Shown in pieces: positions 9,596 to 25,346 of a stretch of DNA of 25,346 nt (positions are counted from its first letter, which is position 1; the number at the start of each line of letters is the position of its first letter). Both the position numbers and the translations under genes were made by a program. Origin of the DNA: a virus (lineage: Duplodnaviria > Caudoviricetes); IMG/VR virus record IMGVR_UViG_3300025103_000142, positions 1-25,346 of that record; one strand, given 5' to 3'. The notes beneath the pieces were generated by a model, which worked only from the letters and a program-made list of their open reading frames with translations, had not been told where the DNA came from and did not search any database.

Positions 9596-12500
9596 ATGCC
9601 AGAAGTTAGACACAATTTTACCGGGGGTAAAATGAATAAGGATCTTGACGAGAGACTAGTACCAAACGGACAATACCGACACGCTTTAAATGTTGAGGTC
9701 TCTACGTCTGAAGGATCTGACGTTGGTACTGTTCAAAACATTCTTGGAAACAAAAGAGTGGATAGCTTAGTTGGAGCAGATTTCAACTGTGTTGGTAGTA
9801 TTGCCGACGAAAAAAGCAATAAGCTATACTGGTTCATATCTAAGTATGATAAAGACGTAATATTAGAATATGATATTGACCACGATATAGCTTCACCTGT
9901 ATTGGTAGACTTAAAAGGGGGTACTCAAAAAGCTGTTTTAAAGTTTTTTGGAAACACAATAACAGGTATTAATATTATTGGTGATTTATTATTTTGGTCA
10001 GACAACAAGGGTGAACCAAAAAAGATAAATATAAAAAGATGTAAAGAAGGAACCACAAATATAAATACCCACACGCAATTAAGTTTTGGTAACAATAGTT
10101 TTACTGGTATTGCGGTGGAATACATTATCAACCTTAATAACCCTGGTGATGGTGGTTGGGGCTTTCATGCAGCCTATCATCCCCCGCTTACTCCTATAGA
10201 AAAAAGACCTAAAATTGGGTTGTATTCTGCATATGAAAGAAGAAGGTTAGCAGCTGCGGTTGGCGTAGATTTTAACGATTTTGTGGATGATTACGGGAAT
10301 ATTAAAGATGCCAATGGTGGTTATATAGATAATTCAACCTCTAGTTCTTATGATGCGGATGGGAATTCAAGCACTGGTAACTTACTGGGATATAGTGGAG
10401 CGGGGTACGATTTTAAAGCCAGGCATTATAGAGATGGGGAGCTTTTGGGTAGTAAAGTACTTAGGGCTTTTGATAATAATAACGGCCTGCATTTTAGATA
10501 TAGGTCCGGTCATACTGAAAAAGACTTTAAAGTTGGGGATGTTGTTTTTGCTGAAAACATAAAACTAGATATAGAAGAAAAACATATAACGGTTATAAAA
10601 CCTAAACCTTTAAAAGCTCCTTCTGTAAAAATAAATTACAAAGAACAAACAAAAACAACAAATAAAAAACCAAATTTATTTGAAGAGCAATTCCCAAGAT
10701 TTTCTTACAGATATAAGTACGCGGATGGAGAGTTTTCTGCATTTGCCCCTTTTACAGAACCTGTATTCAACCCTCAATATACGCAAAATACTGATAAATC
10801 AACCGATGGTAGTATTTTATACAGTAAAGACGATGCGTATAGCGTAAAGGATCCTAAAAATAAGGCTATGGTTAATGCTATTCATTCTGTAGATTTAATG
10901 GATTTTATAACTATAAATACGCCAGAGGATGTTGTGGAGGTAGATTTATTATATAAAAAAGAAGATTCACCAATTATATATTCTATAGGCACGGTTAAAC
11001 ACACTGATTTTGAGTGGCACGCGTCTGCTTTTAACCACGAGCACGGGCAAAGCTTTGTTGGTGGTATAGGGAGATATGATAGTAACTTATCTTCCCCTAA
11101 GGCTTGGATGCCAGCTGCTGACGCCGGTTACAACTCAGGTAAGTACACTGTTAAAAACGAAAATATTTATGCGGCTTTACCAGCTAATCAATTATTAAGA
11201 CCTTGGGACAATGTTCCTAGAAAAGCTTTAGCGCAAGAGGTTAGTGGTAGTAGAATTATTTATGGTAACTACTTACAAAACTATACGATAGGATCTAAGC
11301 CAAAAGTATTTGTAGATTATACTGACAGAAAGAAAACTGTTGGGAGTTTTGACACCAAAGGATTACCATCAATAAAATCTCAAAGAAATTATCAGTTAGG
11401 AGTTATATACTGCGATGAATTTGGTAGAGAAACACCTGTATTCACATCAAGTGGTGGCGCTGTCAATGTTCCTTGGGCAGAAAATGATGGCACAAAAAAC
11501 GCTAGTAAATCAAACCAAATGATTGCTAGTGTTGAAAGTAATTTTCCAGATTGGGTTGATTCAATAAAGTTTTTTGTAAAAGAAAATAGTGGAGAGTATT
11601 ACAATCTAGCCATGGAACGCGCTTGGACGGGTAAGAGTACTTATGAGTTAGATAATTCAGAAGGGCATTTATGGATGTCGTTCCCATCGTCTGATAGAAA
11701 TAAAATATCAAAAGAAGATTCTATAATCTTAAAAAAGAAAATAGGCGTTGGGGAAGAACAAATTAGTTTTGAAAACAAATTTACTGTTATTGATATTCAA
11801 GACGAAGCTCCTGACGCTATAAAGTATGAGTTAGTTAATTTAGGTACTTGGTCAAACACCACAAACAACCACATGACTGATCAAAACGCTACATCTTCAT
11901 ACGACAGGCTTTTTTCTCACGCAAGTCAAAGACCGGATAAATTCAATCAAGATACTATTATCCTTGATATCACTGCTTGGAACGGTGGTGGTGCGTATAG
12001 AAGTGAGTTAACTGAAGGTGTGTCTGTGTCCGGTGTAAGCTCCGAACACAAGAAAATGCCTGAAAATCTTTACGTCTCTTGGTTTAGAGATGGTGGAGCG
12101 TCTTCTTCAAAGTATAAAGTTTCTGGTGGTTGGAAGGGGAGTAGCGGATACGTTTTAAAACTAAATAGAGACATAACTGAAAAAGATGCTAATATAGCTC
12201 ACGTGAACGGTACTGCGATAGATTCTCAAAATGAAACTCATGTTCATGAAGATTTAGTTTTGCAAGTAGAAAAAAGAGTTGCTAAAGACGATGAAAATTT
12301 CTCAGGGCAATTTTTTGTTAAAATATCAAAAAACCACATAACAAGTATAGTAGAAACTGGTAATGAGTTAAGCAACTTAGATAAGTTTGAGGTAATGGCT
12401 GATCAAGGTGTTTGGTATTGGAAAGATGATCACAACGGCGATACGCAGAACCATTCATCTAATCCATTTATATTTCAAAGTGGTAACCCTTATGGTTTAA

Positions 12501-15500
12501 CAAATTATTCTGGAGACCCAACTTATCATGATGGCGGCAACAATGTACAATCGGATGGAGGTAATAACACTAACCTCAACCCTTTGGGTGGGTACGCTAG
12601 ATTAACCGATTGGCATGAAATGTGGGAAAATATCTTAGGTGAACTAGATGGTAAACCAAGGTGGTTTGTAGATTCTATGCACATGGCCTCTGGACAGAGT
12701 GATGAAAGTGATTATGCAAAATATAATTGCGTAACTTGGGCTGGTAGTCGAGATTATGATCCTGGACACCAGTGGGTTTGGCCAGCTAAATCAGCTTGGA
12801 GTTACCCACCATTAAAAAAATGGTTTACAGAGATTACAGAGAACGAAATTGAAGTTGGGGGTAGTGAAGGTGGTTATTTCACTGAAGATAATCCTATCGA
12901 CATTGTGTCAACATCTAACCTGTTTGACCCACATGAAAACTGGTTAGTCTATGACGAGGCTACTGAGGAAAATGTTGGGTTACAAATAGATGGTTGGGTT
13001 GGCGTTCCGCAAAATGTTAGCAGATGGACATCGGTAGACTCATCTGGAGATCACCATAACAACACTATTTCCCAAAATCATATTAATGGTTTGGAGGGTA
13101 TGGTAACGACAAATGAATACCACACTACTGGGCCTAGAAGATGGGTGAGCGGTATGAATGGTACTGAATTTGGAAATGGCGAAGACACTAAAACATACTC
13201 TAGTACTGGTGATGAAGCCGAAAAACACTTTATGCATTTATCTTTCTTCGCGCCAGGTAAAGATTTACACGACAATACTTGGCATTTTGACGAGCCGACT
13301 CTATATGGTAAAAATACATGGATGGATAATCTTCAAGGTATATGGGGTGGTGGTGTTTTCACGGGAACATCTAAAGATCAAAAGTTTGGTAGCGAAACCG
13401 ATGATGCTGACAAGCATTTTCATTTAGCTATGGAAGGAAACTATGCTGATGGAGAAGACAACGATCACCAAGTTTACCACACGCCACCTGGGCCTGGTTC
13501 TGGTTTTGGATATGACTTAGACTACAGAGAGTTACACGAGAGACAATGGGATCCTACTTTTAACTCTGAAAACGATCCAACAAATAGAATACGTGATTTC
13601 ATTAGAAACTTACATGCGGGATCAAGGTTTAGATTTAATCATAAGAAACCAGGGGTCGCGGGTACGGATCCTGAGCTTGATGACGCGGTTTATACTATCA
13701 AAAAAGTTCACGTAAAAAAACTTTACAACCACACTTCTTGGAGAACTCCTCACAATCAATATTTTAGTGACAACGGTGGATATGTTTGGGATGATCCGAG
13801 CGCGGCACATGATGCTTATAATAGCGTTGAAGATATGGCTTTGATTTGGTTGAATAATGTTGATGCGGATGGACAGCACACATCAACTATGGTTGAAACC
13901 GCTGCCTCGGCTTATGGTAATACTCAACAGGAAAATCTTAAAAAGAAAATCGTAGATTTTGGAGCCGCTCATAATAGAAGAGTTTGTTATATAATTGAAT
14001 TAGATAAAAACCCAGCAACATGGGGTCCTGAAAGTGGCTCTGTAATGGGTAATCCATTAAACTCTAACGAAAATGGCGCGGATGGAATGTGTGCTGATTT
14101 AGACAATGATAACTACACTCATGTGGAGTTTTTAGACCCCGTGCAAGATATTGTGTTAAAGGATTTAAGTAAGTTTCCGGCTATATGGGAGTTAAGTCCC
14201 CAAAAACAAGACGTTGATTTAGATATATATTATGAGGCTAGTAACAACATACCTGTTAGAATTAACAGACACACAAACGAATTATTTGCTCCAAAGGGTT
14301 GTTTAGTAGAAATGATAAACCCACCCTCTAACCAAAGTTATAGTGAAGTTCGTTTAGTAGAGTGGGACGGTAACACCGCTATTTTAGAACCAGGTTTTGA
14401 TAGAGGTGCTAACGGTGATGAGGTTGATTACTCTAATGTTAAATTTAAATTTATTAGAAGAGATGGTAGTTACACCGTTGCCAACACTGGATTACAACAA
14501 TTAACTACCACTACAAGTGGTTATAAAACACGTTTTGTTTTCAAACAAAATATAGGAGCTAAAATACAAGTTGGATTAGCTTGGTATAATTGTTTTTCTT
14601 TTGGAAATGGGTTAGAGTCAAATAGAATACAAGATGGTTTTAATAACATGTTTATAACTAACGGTGTTAAAGCGTCTACAACAGCCCAAGAAACATACGA
14701 AGAAGAACACCGTAGGCATGGTATAATATATTCTGGACTGTACAACTCTAACTCTGGTATAAACGATTTAAATCAGTTTATAATGGCAGAGAAAATTACT
14801 AAAGATTTAAACCCCACTTATGGTAGTATACAAAAACTATTTAGTAGAGATACTGATTTAATTGCTTTCTGTGAAGACAAGGTGTTAAAAGTATTAGCAA
14901 ATAAAGACGCTGTATTTAACGCCGATGGAAACGCTCAGTTAACATCTAATCAAAATGTATTAGGTCAAGCTGTTCCATTTCAAGGTGAATATGGTATATC
15001 TAAAAATCCAGAATCATTCGCCGCAGAGTCTTATAGGGCTTATTTCACAGACAAACAGAGAGGAGCTGTTCTTAGGTTATCTAAAGACGGTTTAACACCT
15101 ATATCTAAAGCTGGTATGCATGATTGGTTTAGAGACAATTTATCTAAACACACATCTTTAATAGGTACTTATGATAGTTATAAAGAAAATTATAACATAA
15201 CGCTAGCCAACACTTACGCGGAAAATATAATATTCAATACTTATTTTAGGTTAGGGGCTGAGAGTGAAGCAATAGATGCTTCGGTTTTAAGTTCTGTTGC
15301 TGGTGGCGCGCCTGTGTCGGGTAACGGGTATACACACACTTGGGAGTCACACAATATCTTAACACATTCTGTATACAATTTTAATGGAGGAAGTTCTAAC
15401 GTTGTTGATCAAAAGTTTAAGCACACCGTAAAAGTGGTAAACCACCCAGAAATACCGATTGGTCATTTTCAATCATACGCGGCTGGTACAAATACCCCAC

Positions 15501-18500
15501 CAACGGCAATTATAGCTCAGGGGGAAATTTTGTATGGTGTTGGAGCTACTCCTGAGGTGGTTGGCCAAGACTACATCGCTGCTGAAGCTGAGATTCCCTA
15601 TGTACCACCATTGTATGGTCATGGTGTAAGTACTGGTGGAATGAATCAGTACCAGATAGCAAACTCGGTTCCCTTAGAAGACAGTGGTAATATATACTGG
15701 CCTGGAGATTTCGCTTCTCTTACCGGTTGGTCAGGTAGTTGGGCTACGAGAACGTACTCTGGTAACAACTTATTCGGTCCTTTAGCTATTAGTGATTCGG
15801 ACCCAAACATACACTCTAAGATCGCTAGAATTCAGAATGGCGCAGAGGTAGTAGAATCCAGCACGACAAACAGCCAATACGTGCATGAAAACTACACTGT
15901 TCCAGTTGTTCATCTGCTTGGTTATGGTGGTCCAAGTTATTACGGTGGTAACGACCCTGAGGCAACCAATACAATTCTGCAAAACTACGAAACTGGCGGT
16001 ATTTTGTTTAATAGACTGATACAAACTACAAACAATTACAACAACTACGTTGAGTTTAGAAACCTTGGTCTTAACGATGGTATGGGTAATTTTTTATATG
16101 ACAACTCGCCAGACACACCGGGTAACGGTGGTCACTCAGCGATGTATGCTGGTGACGAGATAGAAATTAGAATAGAAATAAAGGTTAACGACACAGGCAC
16201 ATATAATTATAACGCTGGTGGATCGGCTTGGGAAACTCATACATCGTACAATCACATAAGACCTTTTGTTCAGATACGAGACGGCGGCAACTGGATACCG
16301 TCAAGTTACCTTATGGAGCCATTAAGTAGTTCCACTGGATTGGCTGGGGAAGGTCAAGCGTATAATACAACAACTGTTTCTCAACATTATTTTTGGCAAA
16401 ACCACCTTATGGCGGTAAGTGGTGGTGGTGGGCCAATCTCCTGGCAAAGTAGTTACGGGAACTTGGGATCTTCTACAGATAAAATTTCAGCTTATTGTGG
16501 AAACAGTTACCTGGCTGTGTTCCCCACGACAACAACAAGTGACAACGGGGGTACTCTAGGTGATCCAATGCCAGAAACATATACTCTTCTTCTAAGATAT
16601 AAATTTAAAAGCCCATCCCAAACCTATAGTCTTAATACCGAGTTTGTAGACGAAAAAGTTGTAGACGACCTTCGAATACGTATTGGTAATTATAAGAAAA
16701 ACTCAACAGGTATATATCCAAACGGTAGTTATTTAGGGGATGAAAGTGCTCAAGCTCAAAAATGGGAGATAACGAGCGTGAAAGTTAGAAAACTATTGGG
16801 TATAGTAGCTCCAGACACAGAGTTTGTGCAAGAGGTGGTTGGACAAGCGTATATAGCGTATGAGGCTGAGAATTTGGGACAAACGGTCTATTACTGGGAC
16901 GACCCAGCAATTAACGGTAATGAACAGTCAACCTCCGCTGAAATAACAAATGCCTACGCGGGTGCTATGTTAGACTCAAACACTGGAAATTATATTTTAA
17001 ACCAAGCCGCTATAAACGCTTGGAACATTGCTAACCCTGTGTGGGTTTATCCTCAAGACCCTATACCGCCGGCGACCGTACCTGCTTTTGTAGAAGTAGT
17101 ACATAGTGGACTTAATTGGGATAAAGCTCTTTACAACACGGGTAGTAGTCATGGTAATTGGGAAAGCACAAAACTCCCAAATTACTTTGGTAACAATAGA
17201 TCAGCTATCCTTAAATGGGCATATAAAACTGATCCAGCCACTGGTACACTTACTAACAATCTAGTGCAGTGGTACGAAGCAGGACCTGATCCATCTGGTC
17301 AAAGTGGTCAAGAAGGTAATTATGGAAATAACTCTAGTACTAATGCTGTTCACGCTGACTCTGGTTATTTTAGCAAAACAAACCTTAGAGATGGCGAGGG
17401 CAACCAGTTTATTCCGCCAATAGAAAACCCAACTCCAGCTCTTGGGAGTAACGGTTTGGGTTACGATCCAAACTGTACAAAAACACATGTAGATTGGGTG
17501 GCGGATTATTGGGTTACTTATACAAATTCAAATAGCTCTACTTCTTACAGCCGAACTTTTCCCTTAAGTGCAGGTGAAGAACTTGAGGTTGGACAATGGT
17601 ACATGGTAGACGTTGAGTTAAATGACGAACAGCACGCGGGTCTTTATACTGGTGGCGTATCAAACATGCCATCATACCTCGCTAATGGTGGTAGTGTTGA
17701 GGTTATGGGTGTTTGTGATACAAACGCTCCGACTGGTGTTAATTTTGGTGAAACTGGTGGTTACGGAGCAACGGGTAACGGTACATCTTCAAGCAGTGGT
17801 CAAGGACGACACGCTAGGTGTGCTCCAGTGTTTAGGACTAAGTATAATACAACAACATATGATGTTGCAACTGGTACTACTAACACTAGCGATAAGTGGG
17901 TTTTAAGAACTGTGTTTAAATTAGATTCTAATAGCTGGGTAAACACTGCCCCAACAAAACTTGATGAAATAACACTAAGGTTTTATAATTGGAATCAAAA
18001 CACGGCAAGTAGAATATACGTTGATAAAATTATTTGTAAAAAAGTTTCGTACACAAATAACACTGGCGCCGCGACAAATTGGGATAGAACTATTCATGGT
18101 AACACGGATCACGACTTACAGGTAAACGCTTTTACGGAATCAAAGAAATACTACCGTCAAGGAATGCTTTGTTATGATAATTGCTTGGGATGGGACAACT
18201 ATCTAAACGGAACCTCTGGACCATATGAAGGTTGGTGGAATCAAGTGTTCGCTGCTGGCAAAGAGATTACAAACACTGGTAGTGGTTGGATACTTAACTT
18301 TAAGGTAGCTGCAAATCCAAAAACAAGTAATTTTAACGGTTCGCTTGGTGTTAAAGTTACTGGGCCTTACGGAGATGTAACAAACGCTGGTTTAGCATAC
18401 AACGAGTTTACTGGAGTCCTAGCGCGAGTAGAGCACGAAGGGGATTATCAGATTAAGTTCAATATGAGTGGTACTAAAGATAGCGATTGGAGTATTGAAA

Positions 18501-20041
18501 GAGATAATAGTACTTACTCTGCTACGTATTTTAAGGAGTATGGTGATTATTGGAGTGACACCAACGCTGGAGTTGATGGAATAATAAACACTGCAGACGA
18601 TTACGGTATATCTAATTCGATTGGGTTTTACAACGCGGTTGGAAACACTCCCCTTTCTTGTGGTATTTCCGATATATATTTAACGCAGTCAGAAACTATA
18701 TTCTCTGGGGGTCAGGCTGGTTCTTGGGGTTTTGATGGTTTTGACTCTACATCTGAACAATATATAACATGGGATAGGTATTGGCCTGATGGTATGGTTG
18801 GTACTAGCAATGTTGATGGTAGAATACAATTTTCAAGTTGCCCTAATTTTGACCCTAACTTTGGAAATGGAAACGTTATGATATCCGCTAATCAATATAT
18901 AGATAAAGTTATAGATAGGTATGAGAAATATGAGATTAGCTTTAACTTTAAAATGGAGGAATATGTTGATATCAACGGTTCTCTTACAGCTGTTGATGGT
19001 ACTGGAATGTTCCATATGTATTACTTCAACGGTTCTGGTTTTGGCTTTAGAATAAATGATATTGGTGACGAGGCGTTTTCTAACGTTGTTAATCCTAACT
19101 ACACAAAAACAGCTGTTAACGACAGTAATGGTGACTTTATGTGGTGGAGAGTAACTAAAATTATTGGGATTGGCGATGGTAGCACCCCAGATGACAACGC
19201 TTATTCAGAGTATCAAGGCCAAAACGTCGAGGCTCTTAGAGATACTTTGGTAATTAGAAGAGATGCTAGTGACTCTAATGATTTAACAGGTTGGATAGAT
19301 GATATATCTATGAAACGTGTTTATGATGTAGAAATGACTCCAGGTCCAGATGGAATACCTGGTAACGAGGACGATGTACCTGTTTACCCGGAAACAACAC
19401 TAACGTTTAGTGAAGATATTAAGGGTTGGACTAGCTTTAAATCTTTTATACCAGAAAGTGGTTTAAGTGTATCTAAAAAATATTTTACATTTAAAGACGG
19501 TTATTTATACCAACATTACAAGCCATTAAAACTTAATGAAGGTGGTTCACATTGGGATGATTGTAACTATAGTGACGCTGAAAATTACAACCACTTTTAT
19601 AATCACTTGCCAGTTTCACAGTATAATTACTCTGAAATAGTAGCTGTTATAAACGTAGAACCAAATGTTGTAAAAACTTTTAAAACGATAAACTACGAGG
19701 GTAGTCAAGCTCACATTACTAATCCAGGTGCGCCTGCTTTAACAAACCCAAAACTTGTAAACCAAAACAACGCTATCGCATGGGCTTTAAACGACTACAA
19801 CGTGGGGTTGTATCCTAATGTTGATGGTTGGAAATGTGTAGACGTGAAGACGGATTTAGACGATGGTAAGTTGTTAGATTTCATTAAAAAAGAAGGCAAG
19901 TGGTTTGGATACATAAGAGGAAAGAAAATCACTGGTAAACTAGACACATCAAAATTCAGCGTTCAAGGTATCGGGAAACTAGGTGGTCTTAATAACATAT
20001 CACCACCATCAACTCTCCAATTGGAACTTGCCAGTGATTAA
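9596..20041 (+). CDS. Giant tail stabilisation / nozzle (P22 gp10-like, 'muzzle'-type) protein with large inserted domains
   Basis: 3481 aa uninterrupted. Starts with FTGGKMNKDLDERLVPNGQYRHALN, similar to tail-tube-B/gp10-type N-termini. Beta-propeller-like blocks (FSYRYKYADGEFSAFAPF, YGSIQKLFSRDTDLIAFCEDKV, YGISKNPESFA, YFTDKQRGAVLRLS, GWTSFKSFIPE) are separated by long low-complexity inserts. Confidence 0.7.
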   Translation: MPEVRHNFTGGKMNKDLDERLVPNGQYRHALNVEVSTSEGSDVGTVQNILGNKRVDSLVGADFNCVGSIADEKSNKLYWFISKYDKDVILEYDIDHDIASPVLVDLKGGTQKAVLKFFGNTITGINIIGDLLFWSDNKGEPKKINIKRCKEGTTNINTHTQLSFGNNSFTGIAVEYIINLNNPGDGGWGFHAAYHPPLTPIEKRPKIGLYSAYERRRLAAAVGVDFNDFVDDYGNIKDANGGYIDNSTSSSYDADGNSSTGNLLGYSGAGYDFKARHYRDGELLGSKVLRAFDNNNGLHFRYRSGHTEKDFKVGDVVFAENIKLDIEEKHITVIKPKPLKAPSVKINYKEQTKTTNKKPNLFEEQFPRFSYRYKYADGEFSAFAPFTEPVFNPQYTQNTDKSTDGSILYSKDDAYSVKDPKNKAMVNAIHSVDLMDFITINTPEDVVEVDLLYKKEDSPIIYSIGTVKHTDFEWHASAFNHEHGQSFVGGIGRYDSNLSSPKAWMPAADAGYNSGKYTVKNENIYAALPANQLLRPWDNVPRKALAQEVSGSRIIYGNYLQNYTIGSKPKVFVDYTDRKKTVGSFDTKGLPSIKSQRNYQLGVIYCDEFGRETPVFTSSGGAVNVPWAENDGTKNASKSNQMIASVESNFPDWVDSIKFFVKENSGEYYNLAMERAWTGKSTYELDNSEGHLWMSFPSSDRNKISKEDSIILKKKIGVGEEQISFENKFTVIDIQDEAPDAIKYELVNLGTWSNTTNNHMTDQNATSSYDRLFSHASQRPDKFNQDTIILDITAWNGGGAYRSELTEGVSVSGVSSEHKKMPENLYVSWFRDGGASSSKYKVSGGWKGSSGYVLKLNRDITEKDANIAHVNGTAIDSQNETHVHEDLVLQVEKRVAKDDENFSGQFFVKISKNHITSIVETGNELSNLDKFEVMADQGVWYWKDDHNGDTQNHSSNPFIFQSGNPYGLTNYSGDPTYHDGGNNVQSDGGNNTNLNPLGGYARLTDWHEMWENILGELDGKPRWFVDSMHMASGQSDESDYAKYNCVTWAGSRDYDPGHQWVWPAKSAWSYPPLKKWFTEITENEIEVGGSEGGYFTEDNPIDIVSTSNLFDPHENWLVYDEATEENVGLQIDGWVGVPQNVSRWTSVDSSGDHHNNTISQNHINGLEGMVTTNEYHTTGPRRWVSGMNGTEFGNGEDTKTYSSTGDEAEKHFMHLSFFAPGKDLHDNTWHFDEPTLYGKNTWMDNLQGIWGGGVFTGTSKDQKFGSETDDADKHFHLAMEGNYADGEDNDHQVYHTPPGPGSGFGYDLDYRELHERQWDPTFNSENDPTNRIRDFIRNLHAGSRFRFNHKKPGVAGTDPELDDAVYTIKKVHVKKLYNHTSWRTPHNQYFSDNGGYVWDDPSAAHDAYNSVEDMALIWLNNVDADGQHTSTMVETAASAYGNTQQENLKKKIVDFGAAHNRRVCYIIELDKNPATWGPESGSVMGNPLNSNENGADGMCADLDNDNYTHVEFLDPVQDIVLKDLSKFPAIWELSPQKQDVDLDIYYEASNNIPVRINRHTNELFAPKGCLVEMINPPSNQSYSEVRLVEWDGNTAILEPGFDRGANGDEVDYSNVKFKFIRRDGSYTVANTGLQQLTTTTSGYKTRFVFKQNIGAKIQVGLAWYNCFSFGNGLESNRIQDGFNNMFITNGVKASTTAQETYEEEHRRHGIIYSGLYNSNSGINDLNQFIMAEKITKDLNPTYGSIQKLFSRDTDLIAFCEDKVLKVLANKDAVFNADGNAQLTSNQNVLGQAVPFQGEYGISKNPESFAAESYRAYFTDKQRGAVLRLSKDGLTPISKAGMHDWFRDNLSKHTSLIGTYDSYKENYNITLANTYAENIIFNTYFRLGAESEAIDASVLSSVAGGAPVSGNGYTHTWESHNILTHSVYNFNGGSSNVVDQKFKHTVKVVNHPEIPIGHFQSYAAGTNTPPTAIIAQGEILYGVGATPEVVGQDYIAAEAEIPYVPPLYGHGVSTGGMNQYQIANSVPLEDSGNIYWPGDFASLTGWSGSWATRTYSGNNLFGPLAISDSDPNIHSKIARIQNGAEVVESSTTNSQYVHENYTVPVVHLLGYGGPSYYGGNDPEATNTILQNYETGGILFNRLIQTTNNYNNYVEFRNLGLNDGMGNFLYDNSPDTPGNGGHSAMYAGDEIEIRIEIKVNDTGTYNYNAGGSAWETHTSYNHIRPFVQIRDGGNWIPSSYLMEPLSSSTGLAGEGQAYNTTTVSQHYFWQNHLMAVSGGGGPISWQSSYGNLGSSTDKISAYCGNSYLAVFPTTTTSDNGGTLGDPMPETYTLLLRYKFKSPSQTYSLNTEFVDEKVVDDLRIRIGNYKKNSTGIYPNGSYLGDESAQAQKWEITSVKVRKLLGIVAPDTEFVQEVVGQAYIAYEAENLGQTVYYWDDPAINGNEQSTSAEITNAYAGAMLDSNTGNYILNQAAINAWNIANPVWVYPQDPIPPATVPAFVEVVHSGLNWDKALYNTGSSHGNWESTKLPNYFGNNRSAILKWAYKTDPATGTLTNNLVQWYEAGPDPSGQSGQEGNYGNNSSTNAVHADSGYFSKTNLRDGEGNQFIPPIENPTPALGSNGLGYDPNCTKTHVDWVADYWVTYTNSNSSTSYSRTFPLSAGEELEVGQWYMVDVELNDEQHAGLYTGGVSNMPSYLANGGSVEVMGVCDTNAPTGVNFGETGGYGATGNGTSSSSGQGRHARCAPVFRTKYNTTTYDVATGTTNTSDKWVLRTVFKLDSNSWVNTAPTKLDEITLRFYNWNQNTASRIYVDKIICKKVSYTNNTGAATNWDRTIHGNTDHDLQVNAFTESKKYYRQGMLCYDNCLGWDNYLNGTSGPYEGWWNQVFAAGKEITNTGSGWILNFKVAANPKTSNFNGSLGVKVTGPYGDVTNAGLAYNEFTGVLARVEHEGDYQIKFNMSGTKDSDWSIERDNSTYSATYFKEYGDYWSDTNAGVDGIINTADDYGISNSIGFYNAVGNTPLSCGISDIYLTQSETIFSGGQAGSWGFDGFDSTSEQYITWDRYWPDGMVGTSNVDGRIQFSSCPNFDPNFGNGNVMISANQYIDKVIDRYEKYEISFNFKMEEYVDINGSLTAVDGTGMFHMYYFNGSGFGFRINDIGDEAFSNVVNPNYTKTAVNDSNGDFMWWRVTKIIGIGDGSTPDDNAYSEYQGQNVEALRDTLVIRRDASDSNDLTGWIDDISMKRVYDVEMTPGPDGIPGNEDDVPVYPETTLTFSEDIKGWTSFKSFIPESGLSVSKKYFTFKDGYLYQHYKPLKLNEGGSHWDDCNYSDAENYNHFYNHLPVSQYNYSEIVAVINVEPNVVKTFKTINYEGSQAHITNPGAPALTNPKLVNQNNAIAWALNDYNVGLYPNVDGWKCVDVKTDLDDGKLLDFIKKEGKWFGYIRGKKITGKLDTSKFSVQGIGKLGGLNNISPPSTLQLELASD
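15554..16870 (+). repeat. Degenerate direct repeat pair (39 nt / 13 aa) within the giant gene
   Basis: 15554-15592 EVVGQDYIAAEAE and 16832-16870 EVVGQAYIAYEAE: 11/13 aa and 30/39 nt identical. Confidence 0.75.
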
Positions 20042-21797: not shown

Positions 21798-22391
21798 ATG
21801 AAAAATGAATTAGCGAATAAATTTTTTATAACAGGTTTACCTAGAAGTAGAACAGCTTGGTTATCTTCTTTTTTTACAGGAAATAATTGTTTTTGTTATC
21901 ACGAGGTTATTAGGATTAGTAAAAGTTTTGATGAGGCGATTGGAAAGATGTTAAATAGAAAAGAAACGTATGTGGGTAATAGTGATAGTTCTTTACCTAT
22001 TTGGGCAAATGAAATAGATCACATACTTCAACATTCTCCAATAGTGATTGTAGAAAGAGATATTGATGAAGTTACCAACAGTTTAATAAACCTATGGGGT
22101 TGTGATCCTACTAGGTTTCTAGATTTAACATTAGAACATTTAGAAATCTTAAAAAAAAGATATAATTATATATCTATAGATTACAATAAATTAAGCGATC
22201 AATCATGTTTAGAAAGTATTTGGGATTTTTGTATTCCAAATATTGATTTTGATGAAGATAAATTTAAAATGCTAAAAACAATAAATATATCCATCGATAA
22301 AGAATCTTACATGAAGGATTTAATAGACAAAGATGGAAATATAAAAAAAGGTTTAGAAAACCTTACTCAATATATTAATAAAAAATATTAA
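21798..22391 (+). CDS. Sulfotransferase-like P-loop protein
   Basis: N-terminal FFITGLPRSRTAWLSSFF matches the sulfotransferase 5'-PSB loop (hhhhG.PRSGT) followed by a C..HE segment. IVIVERDIDEVTNSL resembles the 3'-PB motif (R.P...h.S). IDYNKL and IWDFC resemble the family's YEDL and ..FL motifs. Confidence 0.65.
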   Translation: MKNELANKFFITGLPRSRTAWLSSFFTGNNCFCYHEVIRISKSFDEAIGKMLNRKETYVGNSDSSLPIWANEIDHILQHSPIVIVERDIDEVTNSLINLWGCDPTRFLDLTLEHLEILKKRYNYISIDYNKLSDQSCLESIWDFCIPNIDFDEDKFKMLKTINISIDKESYMKDLIDKDGNIKKGLENLTQYINKKY

Positions 22392-24921: not shown

Positions 24922-25346
24922 ATGCCAGATATAAAAGAAGTAATTGACATGATGGTTGCTGATGGTAGACCAGAATCTGAAATTATAGCATTAATAGATC
25001 GTTATAATAAAGATAATGAAGTGGGAAAGACAGACGGCTCCTCGACAGAGACCCAGACGGTGGAGTCAAGCGTTACGGATTCAGGGTCGGACGATGGTTC
25101 ATCGGAATCACAAGGCAGCCTGCTAACACAAGAAGTTATGGGAGTGTCTTACCAAGTAAGCAAAGAAGCCATAGCTAGTGGTAAAAAAAATAGGGAAGCA
25201 GCAAGAAATTTTTTCTCAACAAAAAAATCAAAGCTAGAGCAAGCCTTAGACAACGTTAATATTGAAGTACCATTAACCAAGAAGGATATTGCTAGTGTGG
25301 ACGCCGACTTGCAGCTAGCACAATCACCTAAAATAAAAGAATTAGA
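24922..25346 (+). CDS. 5' part of a further ORF (probably a large internal virion protein), 3'-truncated; absent from the supplied ORF track
   Basis: ATG at 24922 with AAT upstream. Reads MPDIKEVIDMMVADGRPESEIIALIDRYNKDNEVGKTDGSST... with no stop to the window end. Confidence 0.75.
   Translation, partial: MPDIKEVIDMMVADGRPESEIIALIDRYNKDNEVGKTDGSSTETQTVESSVTDSGSDDGSSESQGSLLTQEVMGVSYQVSKEAIASGKKNREAARNFFSTKKSKLEQALDNVNIEVPLTKKDIASVDADLQLAQSPKIKEL
25023..25109 (+). other. Candidate -1 programmed ribosomal frameshift signal (slippery heptamer plus kissing/pseudoknot structure)
   Basis: In-frame G_GGA_AAG at 25023-25029, 6-nt spacer, then four complementary pairings (see findings). About 57% GC over 25021-25110 by hand count. 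Confidence 0.5.

Follow-up and report, generated by a model that had tools for sequence, protein, structure and literature searches.

The window analyzed here is a whole contig of 25,346 bases. It carries a phage morphogenesis module in which PHROGs identify a terminase, a portal, and several virion structural proteins, and its genes run in the order terminase, portal, capsid module, large virion proteins, and giant gene. The last ORF, which is the 5′ end of the giant gene, is 100% identical across its 141 amino acids to a database protein of 1539 aa; complete syntenic giants in relatives are 2332 to 2397 aa long. The nearest records are a Manatee Spring phage (its portal 52% identical), Maribacter phage Panino, Elemovirus, and Cellulophaga phages of Pervagoviridae and Pachyviridae. 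Since these are the nearest records, a flavobacterial host is likely.

The window's giant had no match in Pfam or PHROG, and its residues 860 to 1200 matched only unnamed clusters in the ESM Atlas. The giant of one relative begins with a lysozyme domain (PF00959, E = 1e-14), and the record of phi18:3 carries an MS/MS virion note on gp120, gp121, and gp123, the last of which is syntenic to the giant. From gene order, this virion annotation of syntenic isolate genes, and the relative's lysozyme domain, we infer that the giant may be an ejection protein. Gene order and the syntenic virion genes also agree with the earlier note on this DNA, which had placed the site in a virion gene and not in a tail chaperone. 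By eye, residues of about 930 to 1170 of the window's giant (P0001) contain an apparent HExxH motif as well as a segment that looks like sigma-factor region 2; this pair suggests an injected polyvalent protein. A scan for promoters and terminators between 24600 and 25346 found none. Elsewhere in the window, the gene at 9596–20041 encodes a virion structural protein of 3481 aa that contains long insertions and whose PHROG profile, at 1474, is less than half as long, and the AT-rich 197-aa gene at 21798–22391 (PHROG "hydrolase") occupies a slot that holds an acetyltransferase-like gene in many relatives.

The features considered below lie at the 3′ end of the window.

24922–25346, plus strand: giant virion-module gene, 5′ end, zero frame; an open ORF that runs off the contig end.
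24922–25029, plus strand: N-terminal part of 36 residues common to the long and the predicted short product; 34 to 68 residues in relatives and, in one, 247 with a lysozyme domain.
25023–25029, plus strand: slippery heptamer G_GGA_AAG, in phase.
25030–25035, plus strand: spacer of 6 nt; the same length in 39 of 60 distinct cassettes and in 31 of 43 in an independent set.
25029–25178, plus strand: −1 frame tail of 49 codons plus TAG, net charge +7, without a start codon of its own; the upstream stop is TGA at 25017–25019.
25036–25041 with 25062–25067, possible extension 25042–25044 with 25058–25060, plus strand: stem 1, with covariation.
25050–25054 (loop) with 25084–25088, plus strand: stem 2 of a predicted H-type pseudoknot, the loop complement lying downstream.
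25068–25115, plus strand: 16-codon −1 frame motif, a predicted two-strand beta-hairpin; two Gly in 60 of 60 sequences, third base free.
25078–25109, plus strand: hairpin 2 of the earlier note, outside the signal; possible in the window (pair probabilities 0.2 to 0.26 in a nested-only ensemble), not conserved.

The earlier note had proposed a −1 frameshift signal at this place, and its reading of the letters was accurate. Every stretch that it quoted was found where it had been located, the heptamer G_GGA_AAG at codons 34 to 36 has the correct X_XXY_YYZ phase, and a −1 slip would add 49 codons up to the TAG at 25176–25178, giving a product of 36 + 49 = 85 aa. The GC island is there as well (58% at 25030–25120, the top 90-nt window of the contig, whose mean is 37%). 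In-phase canonical heptamers occur 60 times in the 8334 codons of the window's 14 ORFs, five of them in the last ORF. Among these 60, the site at 25023 ranks first for a helix starting 5 to 8 nt downstream, and it is the only one whose −1 frame stays open for at least 28 codons. The sequence at 25030–25115 folds no better than its shuffles (z = +0.90; 169 of 200 shuffles as good), and a search of Rfam returned no match for the proposed structure (best E = 5.8). By themselves, the letters of the window are weak evidence for a frameshift signal.

Giant 5′ ends of related phages were therefore gathered through two upstream genes, except for three loci that were found with the ORF itself. The marker gene was present in 174 of 178 sequences, the giant was reached in 146, and 114 distinct 5′ ends remained. 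A profile of the −1 peptide, built from 11 seeds, gave a two-humped result in which 60 of the 114, seeds included, scored above 15; L177 (score 7.9) was added by eye, and L079 (score 8.3), which has a stop within its motif, was excluded as a cassette. In 453 control scans, the 99th percentile was 1.1, and the single high value was a true cassette behind a lysozyme domain. When all loci were scanned in six frames (4.0 million positions), just two more copies turned up, each again in a giant: this one behind the lysozyme domain and another in a truncated giant. The cassette is present in 62 of the 114 distinct giant 5′ ends and absent from 52, and 63 cassettes were found overall. In L036 (7494–8330), it follows a phage lysozyme domain, and the short product there would be a lysozyme with a hairpin tail. 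Two loci whose giants have, by eye, a transglycosylase-like start (L073 and L113) are without the cassette.

The cassettes have in common a slippery site in frame, then a spacer, typically of 6 nt, and a stem that covaries and whose loop is complementary to sequence farther 3′. Of the conservation that the earlier note had anticipated for GGGAAAG, the in-phase slippery class stood, but the exact heptamer is found in only 16 of the 63 cassettes and is replaced in the others by GGGAAAA (12), GGAAAAG (9), AAATTTT (8), GGGAAAC (7), AGTAAAG (5), TGATTTT (3), AGCAAAG (2), or GGATTTT (1). All nine words retain a homopolymeric A-site triplet. A canonical heptamer is present in 43 of the 63 cassettes, compared to 1.1% per codon elsewhere in the giants, and 20 of 63 are noncanonical. 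Slip sites in this first set were picked partly on stem strength, and three were set by hand; a second, independent set therefore matters (see below).

On a quick marker-gene tree of 114 rows, presence and absence of the cassette need 29 changes, compared to a shuffled mean of 37.8, and at least 12 of the 29 are forced by branches with support of 95 or more. The cassette has thus often been gained or lost and, with about half of the related phages lacking it, is an optional accessory.

Stem 1 corresponds to hairpin 1 of the earlier note. In 17 aligned cassettes of equal length, 89% of its cells are paired, and four of its eight pairs are changed on both sides. Its mean energy is −9.0, compared to −1.9 in shuffles, with 42 of 60 cassettes at p 0.05. 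When mean helix energy is sorted by spacer, it is −8.1 kcal/mol at 6 nt and near zero at 4 nt or less. The pairing of the hairpin loop, GACCC, with GGGTC farther downstream was borne out as complementarity across cassettes by a register-free test: 52 of 60 loops hold GA-N-N-C, and an exact complement of the loop 5-mer was sought in the cassette's own downstream 45 nt. Such a complement is present in 37 of 52 cassettes, compared to 10.9 when permuted (maximum of 21 in 5000), and in 14.8 of 24 compared to 5.5 when one cassette per 80% cluster is taken. The window's own cluster is counted as a miss, the blind rule having settled on an overlapping 5-mer there. Singly, stem 2 is weak (shuffle p 0.31 in the window; p 0.05 reached by 12 of 60 cassettes), and at fixed columns the loop helix is just 58% paired because its register moves. 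Stem 1 and the loop pairing together show more covariation than all 500 shuffles.

The second hairpin of the earlier note did not survive the comparison: its helices are 66% and 61% paired, compared to 89% for stem 1, in the same 17 cassettes, and its middle pairs are broken in 11 of them. With it falls the multi-stem kissing model, since no conserved second stem-loop holds the pairing strand. The GACCC/GGGTC pairing is better read as stem 2 of an H-type pseudoknot than as a kissing loop.

The −1 frame that follows the slip site encodes a conserved peptide. The consensus of its motif is Y-G-x-x-x-G-x-W-F-F-G; in 60 distinct sequences, the two Gly are invariant, and Phe is kept in 58. The Tyr codon alternates between TAC and TAT, thereby swapping Thr and Met in frame 0. 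For single-base codon differences between close pairs, the synonymous share within the motif is 0.56, 0.19, and 0.08 in frames −1, 0, and +1, respectively; these pairs are related, and the counts are not independent events. In the stem part, the corresponding shares are 0.33, 0.27, and 0.34, with no frame favored, as would be the case if that part were held by the RNA. A stop within 27 codons is found in 1 of 61 sequences in the −1 frame and in 55 of 61 in the +1 frame (the background chance of an open frame is 0.016); the single −1 case is a deletion variant whose slip site lies 3′ of that stop. Tails are 23 to 49 codons long, with a median charge of +4, so the shift is not followed by an immediate stop. 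Upstream of the motif and in its frame, ATG, GTG, or TTG occurs in 4 of 174 loci and is absent from the window.

These patterns indicate that the −1 frame is coding and under purifying selection. The cassette appears to be constrained in its first half as RNA and in its second half as −1 peptide, the 3′ strand of stem 2 overlapping the motif. The earlier view of the shift as mere truncation is set aside by the conserved peptide. The odd Ser/Asp/Thr linker in the zero frame, which had been attributed to selection on the RNA, is explained by the RNA in part, but the RNA is not its sole cause, since the −1 peptide is conserved too. AlphaFold2, run on a 62-sequence alignment, returned a pair of strands with a turn of two residues between them (mean pLDDT 68); the strands of the tail are predicted with modest confidence.

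Searches for the peptide outside these loci gave little. A tblastn search of the −1 frame against 50,697 phage records returned two chance hits (E of 7 to 8), and the tail had no usable match in Pfam, PDB sequences, or the ESM Atlas. A profile search of 1.84 billion proteins gave 20 matches, 19 of which are short (49 to 110 aa) and end in the motif; most of the 19 look like an N-domain and the tail joined in a single frame. Ten of the matches were looked up; each forms a cluster with a single member, and one of them is a Mycoplasma protein that is unrelated. The short matches may thus be assembly indels and were not counted as support. In GTDB genomes, there were 28 pattern matches, 11 of which have the architecture by eye, all on short metagenome-assembled genome (MAG) contigs; the remaining ones, including two Flagellimonas isolates, are chance matches, and no isolate prophage with the cassette was found among these genomes.

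The independent set was collected with a DNA pattern of the motif alone. An estimated 650 IMG/VR stretches match the strict pattern; 120 were taken from 12 of 64 IMG/VR parts, of which 117 are distinct and 111 new. A long or open frame lies at +1 to the motif in 110 of the 111 new loci. These loci split into 59 without an A run and 52 with an A8 to A11 run. In the 59 loci without an A run, a first-set heptamer is in frame in 51, compared to 3 and 1 in the wrong frames, and 43 have the stem too. Loop pairing in the independent set was found in 38 of 54, compared to 12.0 permuted. Both cassette sets thus support the −1 frameshifting architecture of the earlier note (heptamer, 6-nt spacer, hairpin 1, and loop pairing) and its short N-terminal product, to which a conserved tail is now added.

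In the poly-A class, run length is 10 in 37 of 52 loci, the run lies within 11 nt of the motif in 32, and a helix of −6 or better is present in only 4. In many of these loci, the motif frame opens just four codons upstream of the motif. Passages of PMC5009743 describe bacterial RNA-polymerase slippage on a 9-base run. As a run of 9 is the described length, transcriptional slippage is likely in the poly-A loci, a ribosomal slip on the run being the alternative. In this class, the output would be kept and the mechanism swapped. Five poly-A loci (L190, L204, L290, L321, and L210) have the N-domain off the giant's frame or a giant frame that closes early; in L190, which has an A8 run, the N-domain is in the motif frame. 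They may be natural variants or homopolymer errors.

Cultured relatives carry A runs at the same place. In elemoA, phi38:1, Calle, and the Manatee Spring record, the run is A10 to A11, the giant is in frame, and the −1 frame is open; motif scores are weak (9 for Manatee and negative for the other three). A run of A9 is found in phi18:3, phi19:3, phi13:2, phi46:3, and Panino; their N-domain and giant are not in one frame, and the giant needs one extra A or a −1 slip. The giants of the four Cellulophaga A9 phages are annotated from TTG, with no Met for 127 residues. A recognizable motif lies one frame further in Panino (score 13); in the four Cellulophaga A9 phages, no more than its W-F-F-G end can be seen (score −4). 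Sequencing error is an unlikely cause of the offset, which recurs in five records whose N-domains are of three different kinds. The annotated small gene and giant of these five phages are probably one recoded gene. The split giants are at L182:25056–25400 (phi19:3), L183:5310–5650 (phi18:3), L184:6119–6400 (phi13:2), L185:6119–6450 (phi46:3), and L180:28700–28900, minus strand (Panino).

Closer to the window, contigs of three marine runs share 25023–25115, stacking up over 25030–25115, and diverge at 25022–25023 and 25105–25114. Among 40 of the 41 listed population variants, the heptamer shows no variant. Variants at 25037 and 25041 keep the pairs of stem 1; read in the −1 frame, the changes at 25070, 25076, and 25079 leave the amino acid as it is, and the one at 25080 turns Phe into Val. 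One contig is changed at 25042, 25058, and 25059, altering the optional stem extension.

The alignments demonstrate the signal, its phase, its covariation, and purifying selection on the −1 peptide; that ribosomes shift at this site, and at what rate, we infer from them. Very probably, the conserved cassette shifts a share of ribosomes, so that the gene gives both the giant and an 85-residue protein with a conserved, basic, predicted beta-hairpin end. Some share or most of the ribosomes would continue in frame 0 and make the giant protein, and a share would pause at the pseudoknot, slip on G_GGA_AAG, and make the 85-aa protein.

The rival that fares best accepts the shift but holds that it merely lowers the copy number of the giant, the short product being waste and its tail a degradation tag at best. 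Indeed, more than 97% of the protein would be lost by a shift at codon 36, and the cassette is gained and lost frequently (29 changes, at least 12 forced). Hydrophobic C-ends can act as protease signals, and a degron role for the tail is possible. However, bare truncation needs just a near stop, yet the tails run for 23 to 49 codons, with two invariant Gly and a near-invariant Phe that are retained in the poly-A class as well; we consider this explanation improbable. Less probable still is a structure that acts without recoding, be it as an RNA for regulation or processing or as a cassette for DNA recombination. The segment 25023–25115, common to three marine runs and diverging at both borders, does look exchanged as a module, but the reading-frame phase of the heptamer (51 versus 3 and 1), the codon-position pattern of the −1 frame, and the low-structure poly-A class would all be left unexplained, which makes this reading very unlikely. 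A separately initiated overlapping gene would account for a −1 peptide that behaves as a coding frame; with no −1 start codon in the window or in 170 of 174 loci, and a frame that opens just four codons 5′ of the motif in many poly-A loci, it is hardly credible. Chance heptamers and hairpins in a GC-richer linker, which the 60 heptamers and the folding z of +0.90 in the window would allow, are refuted by all comparative results and by conservation in phase, and we give this reading next to no weight.

Two products from one gene by recoding at the cassette, the reading that we prefer, has partial precedents. To our knowledge, most of the conserved frameshifts described in phages belong to tail chaperones or produce capsid extensions. 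G_GGA_AAG is also the gpG/gpGT site of phage lambda, where, as proposed here, a −1 shift in a phage morphogenesis gene gives two products with one N-terminus in a fixed ratio. Unlike lambda G/GT, the gene here is not between the major tail protein and tape measure genes but is a giant virion-module gene of a short-tailed-type phage, and the shift, at codon 36 of at least 1539, would shorten the product, whereas lambda's lies near the 3′ end and extends it. Another likeness is to E. coli copA, in which function resides in the shared N-domain: there, as predicted here, ribosomes that slip by −1 close to the 5′ end make a short product with the N-terminus of the long one. The cassette differs from copA in that it lies in a phage virion gene and that the added −1 tail is long and itself conserved. 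According to passages of PMC5009743, the copA product has 70 aa and shares its N-terminus with an 834-aa protein, G_GGA_AAG is highly shift-prone in E. coli, and the same heptamer is found at the g-t site of HCTV-5.

The dnaX tau/gamma pair is made by a ribosomal −1 shift in E. coli and by transcriptional slippage on a 9-base run in Thermus thermophilus, with polarity reversed in a few bacteria, as the same source describes (PMC5009743). The cassette resembles dnaX in that a long/short pair would arise via a ribosomal shift or a homopolymer run, with polarity sometimes reversed. In dnaX, the stop comes one codon after the shift, two-thirds along the gene; in contrast, ribosomes here would shift after about 2% of the gene and enter a frame whose peptide is under selection, and the stimulator is a predicted pseudoknot. 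The −1 shifts in phage structural genes of T7/T3 (gene 10) and Lactobacillus A2, mentioned in PMC5009743 along with the use of pseudoknots by bacterial ribosomes, extend the capsid protein at its C-end, unlike the cassette here. Our search of the literature, which covered titles and the starts of abstracts, found no description of the cassette; the main texts of PMC8776804 and PMC7077304 do not mention frameshifting or slippage. We regard the recoding cassette as real and widespread and apparently undescribed, a variant form of programmed −1 frameshifting.

If this is true, then an unannotated small-protein family is added to a widespread aquatic phage group, bacteria offer a natural frameshift pseudoknot with many covarying variants, and dnaX is joined by a second gene in which ribosomal and transcriptional recoding stand in for one another. 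The question is testable in the five cultured phages whose giant is split at the A9 run and annotated as two genes; virion proteomics of phi18:3 exists, by its record.

With an acidic N-module, drawn from several unrelated families, ahead of an amphipathic hairpin that is basic, the short protein may be a small adaptor or a helper bound to the membrane. It would retain the giant's N-module, which is probably a signal for loading or docking, and have the body replaced by the hairpin, which would bind a membrane or a virion partner. Such a protein could serve as an assembly or injection accessory in fixed ratio to the giant, a proposal that we offer tentatively. Docking of the N-domain on the C-end of the upstream protein was considered and rejected, as no co-segregation was visible by eye. 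A wider generalization, to which we give slightly less credence again, is that a swappable dual-coding cassette of ~90 nt, present in hundreds of flavobacterial phage contigs, might be placed behind any N-module, even a lysozyme. It would make a small protein with a membrane- or partner-binding tail by a pseudoknot shift or by poly-A slippage, and it would be inverted in cultured Pachyviridae and Panino, where the giant needs the slip and one A9 run may serve three frames. One predicted protein, P0009, a single-member cluster, carries a tandem pair of cassettes, of which the first is read in frame 0 and the other in the −1 frame.
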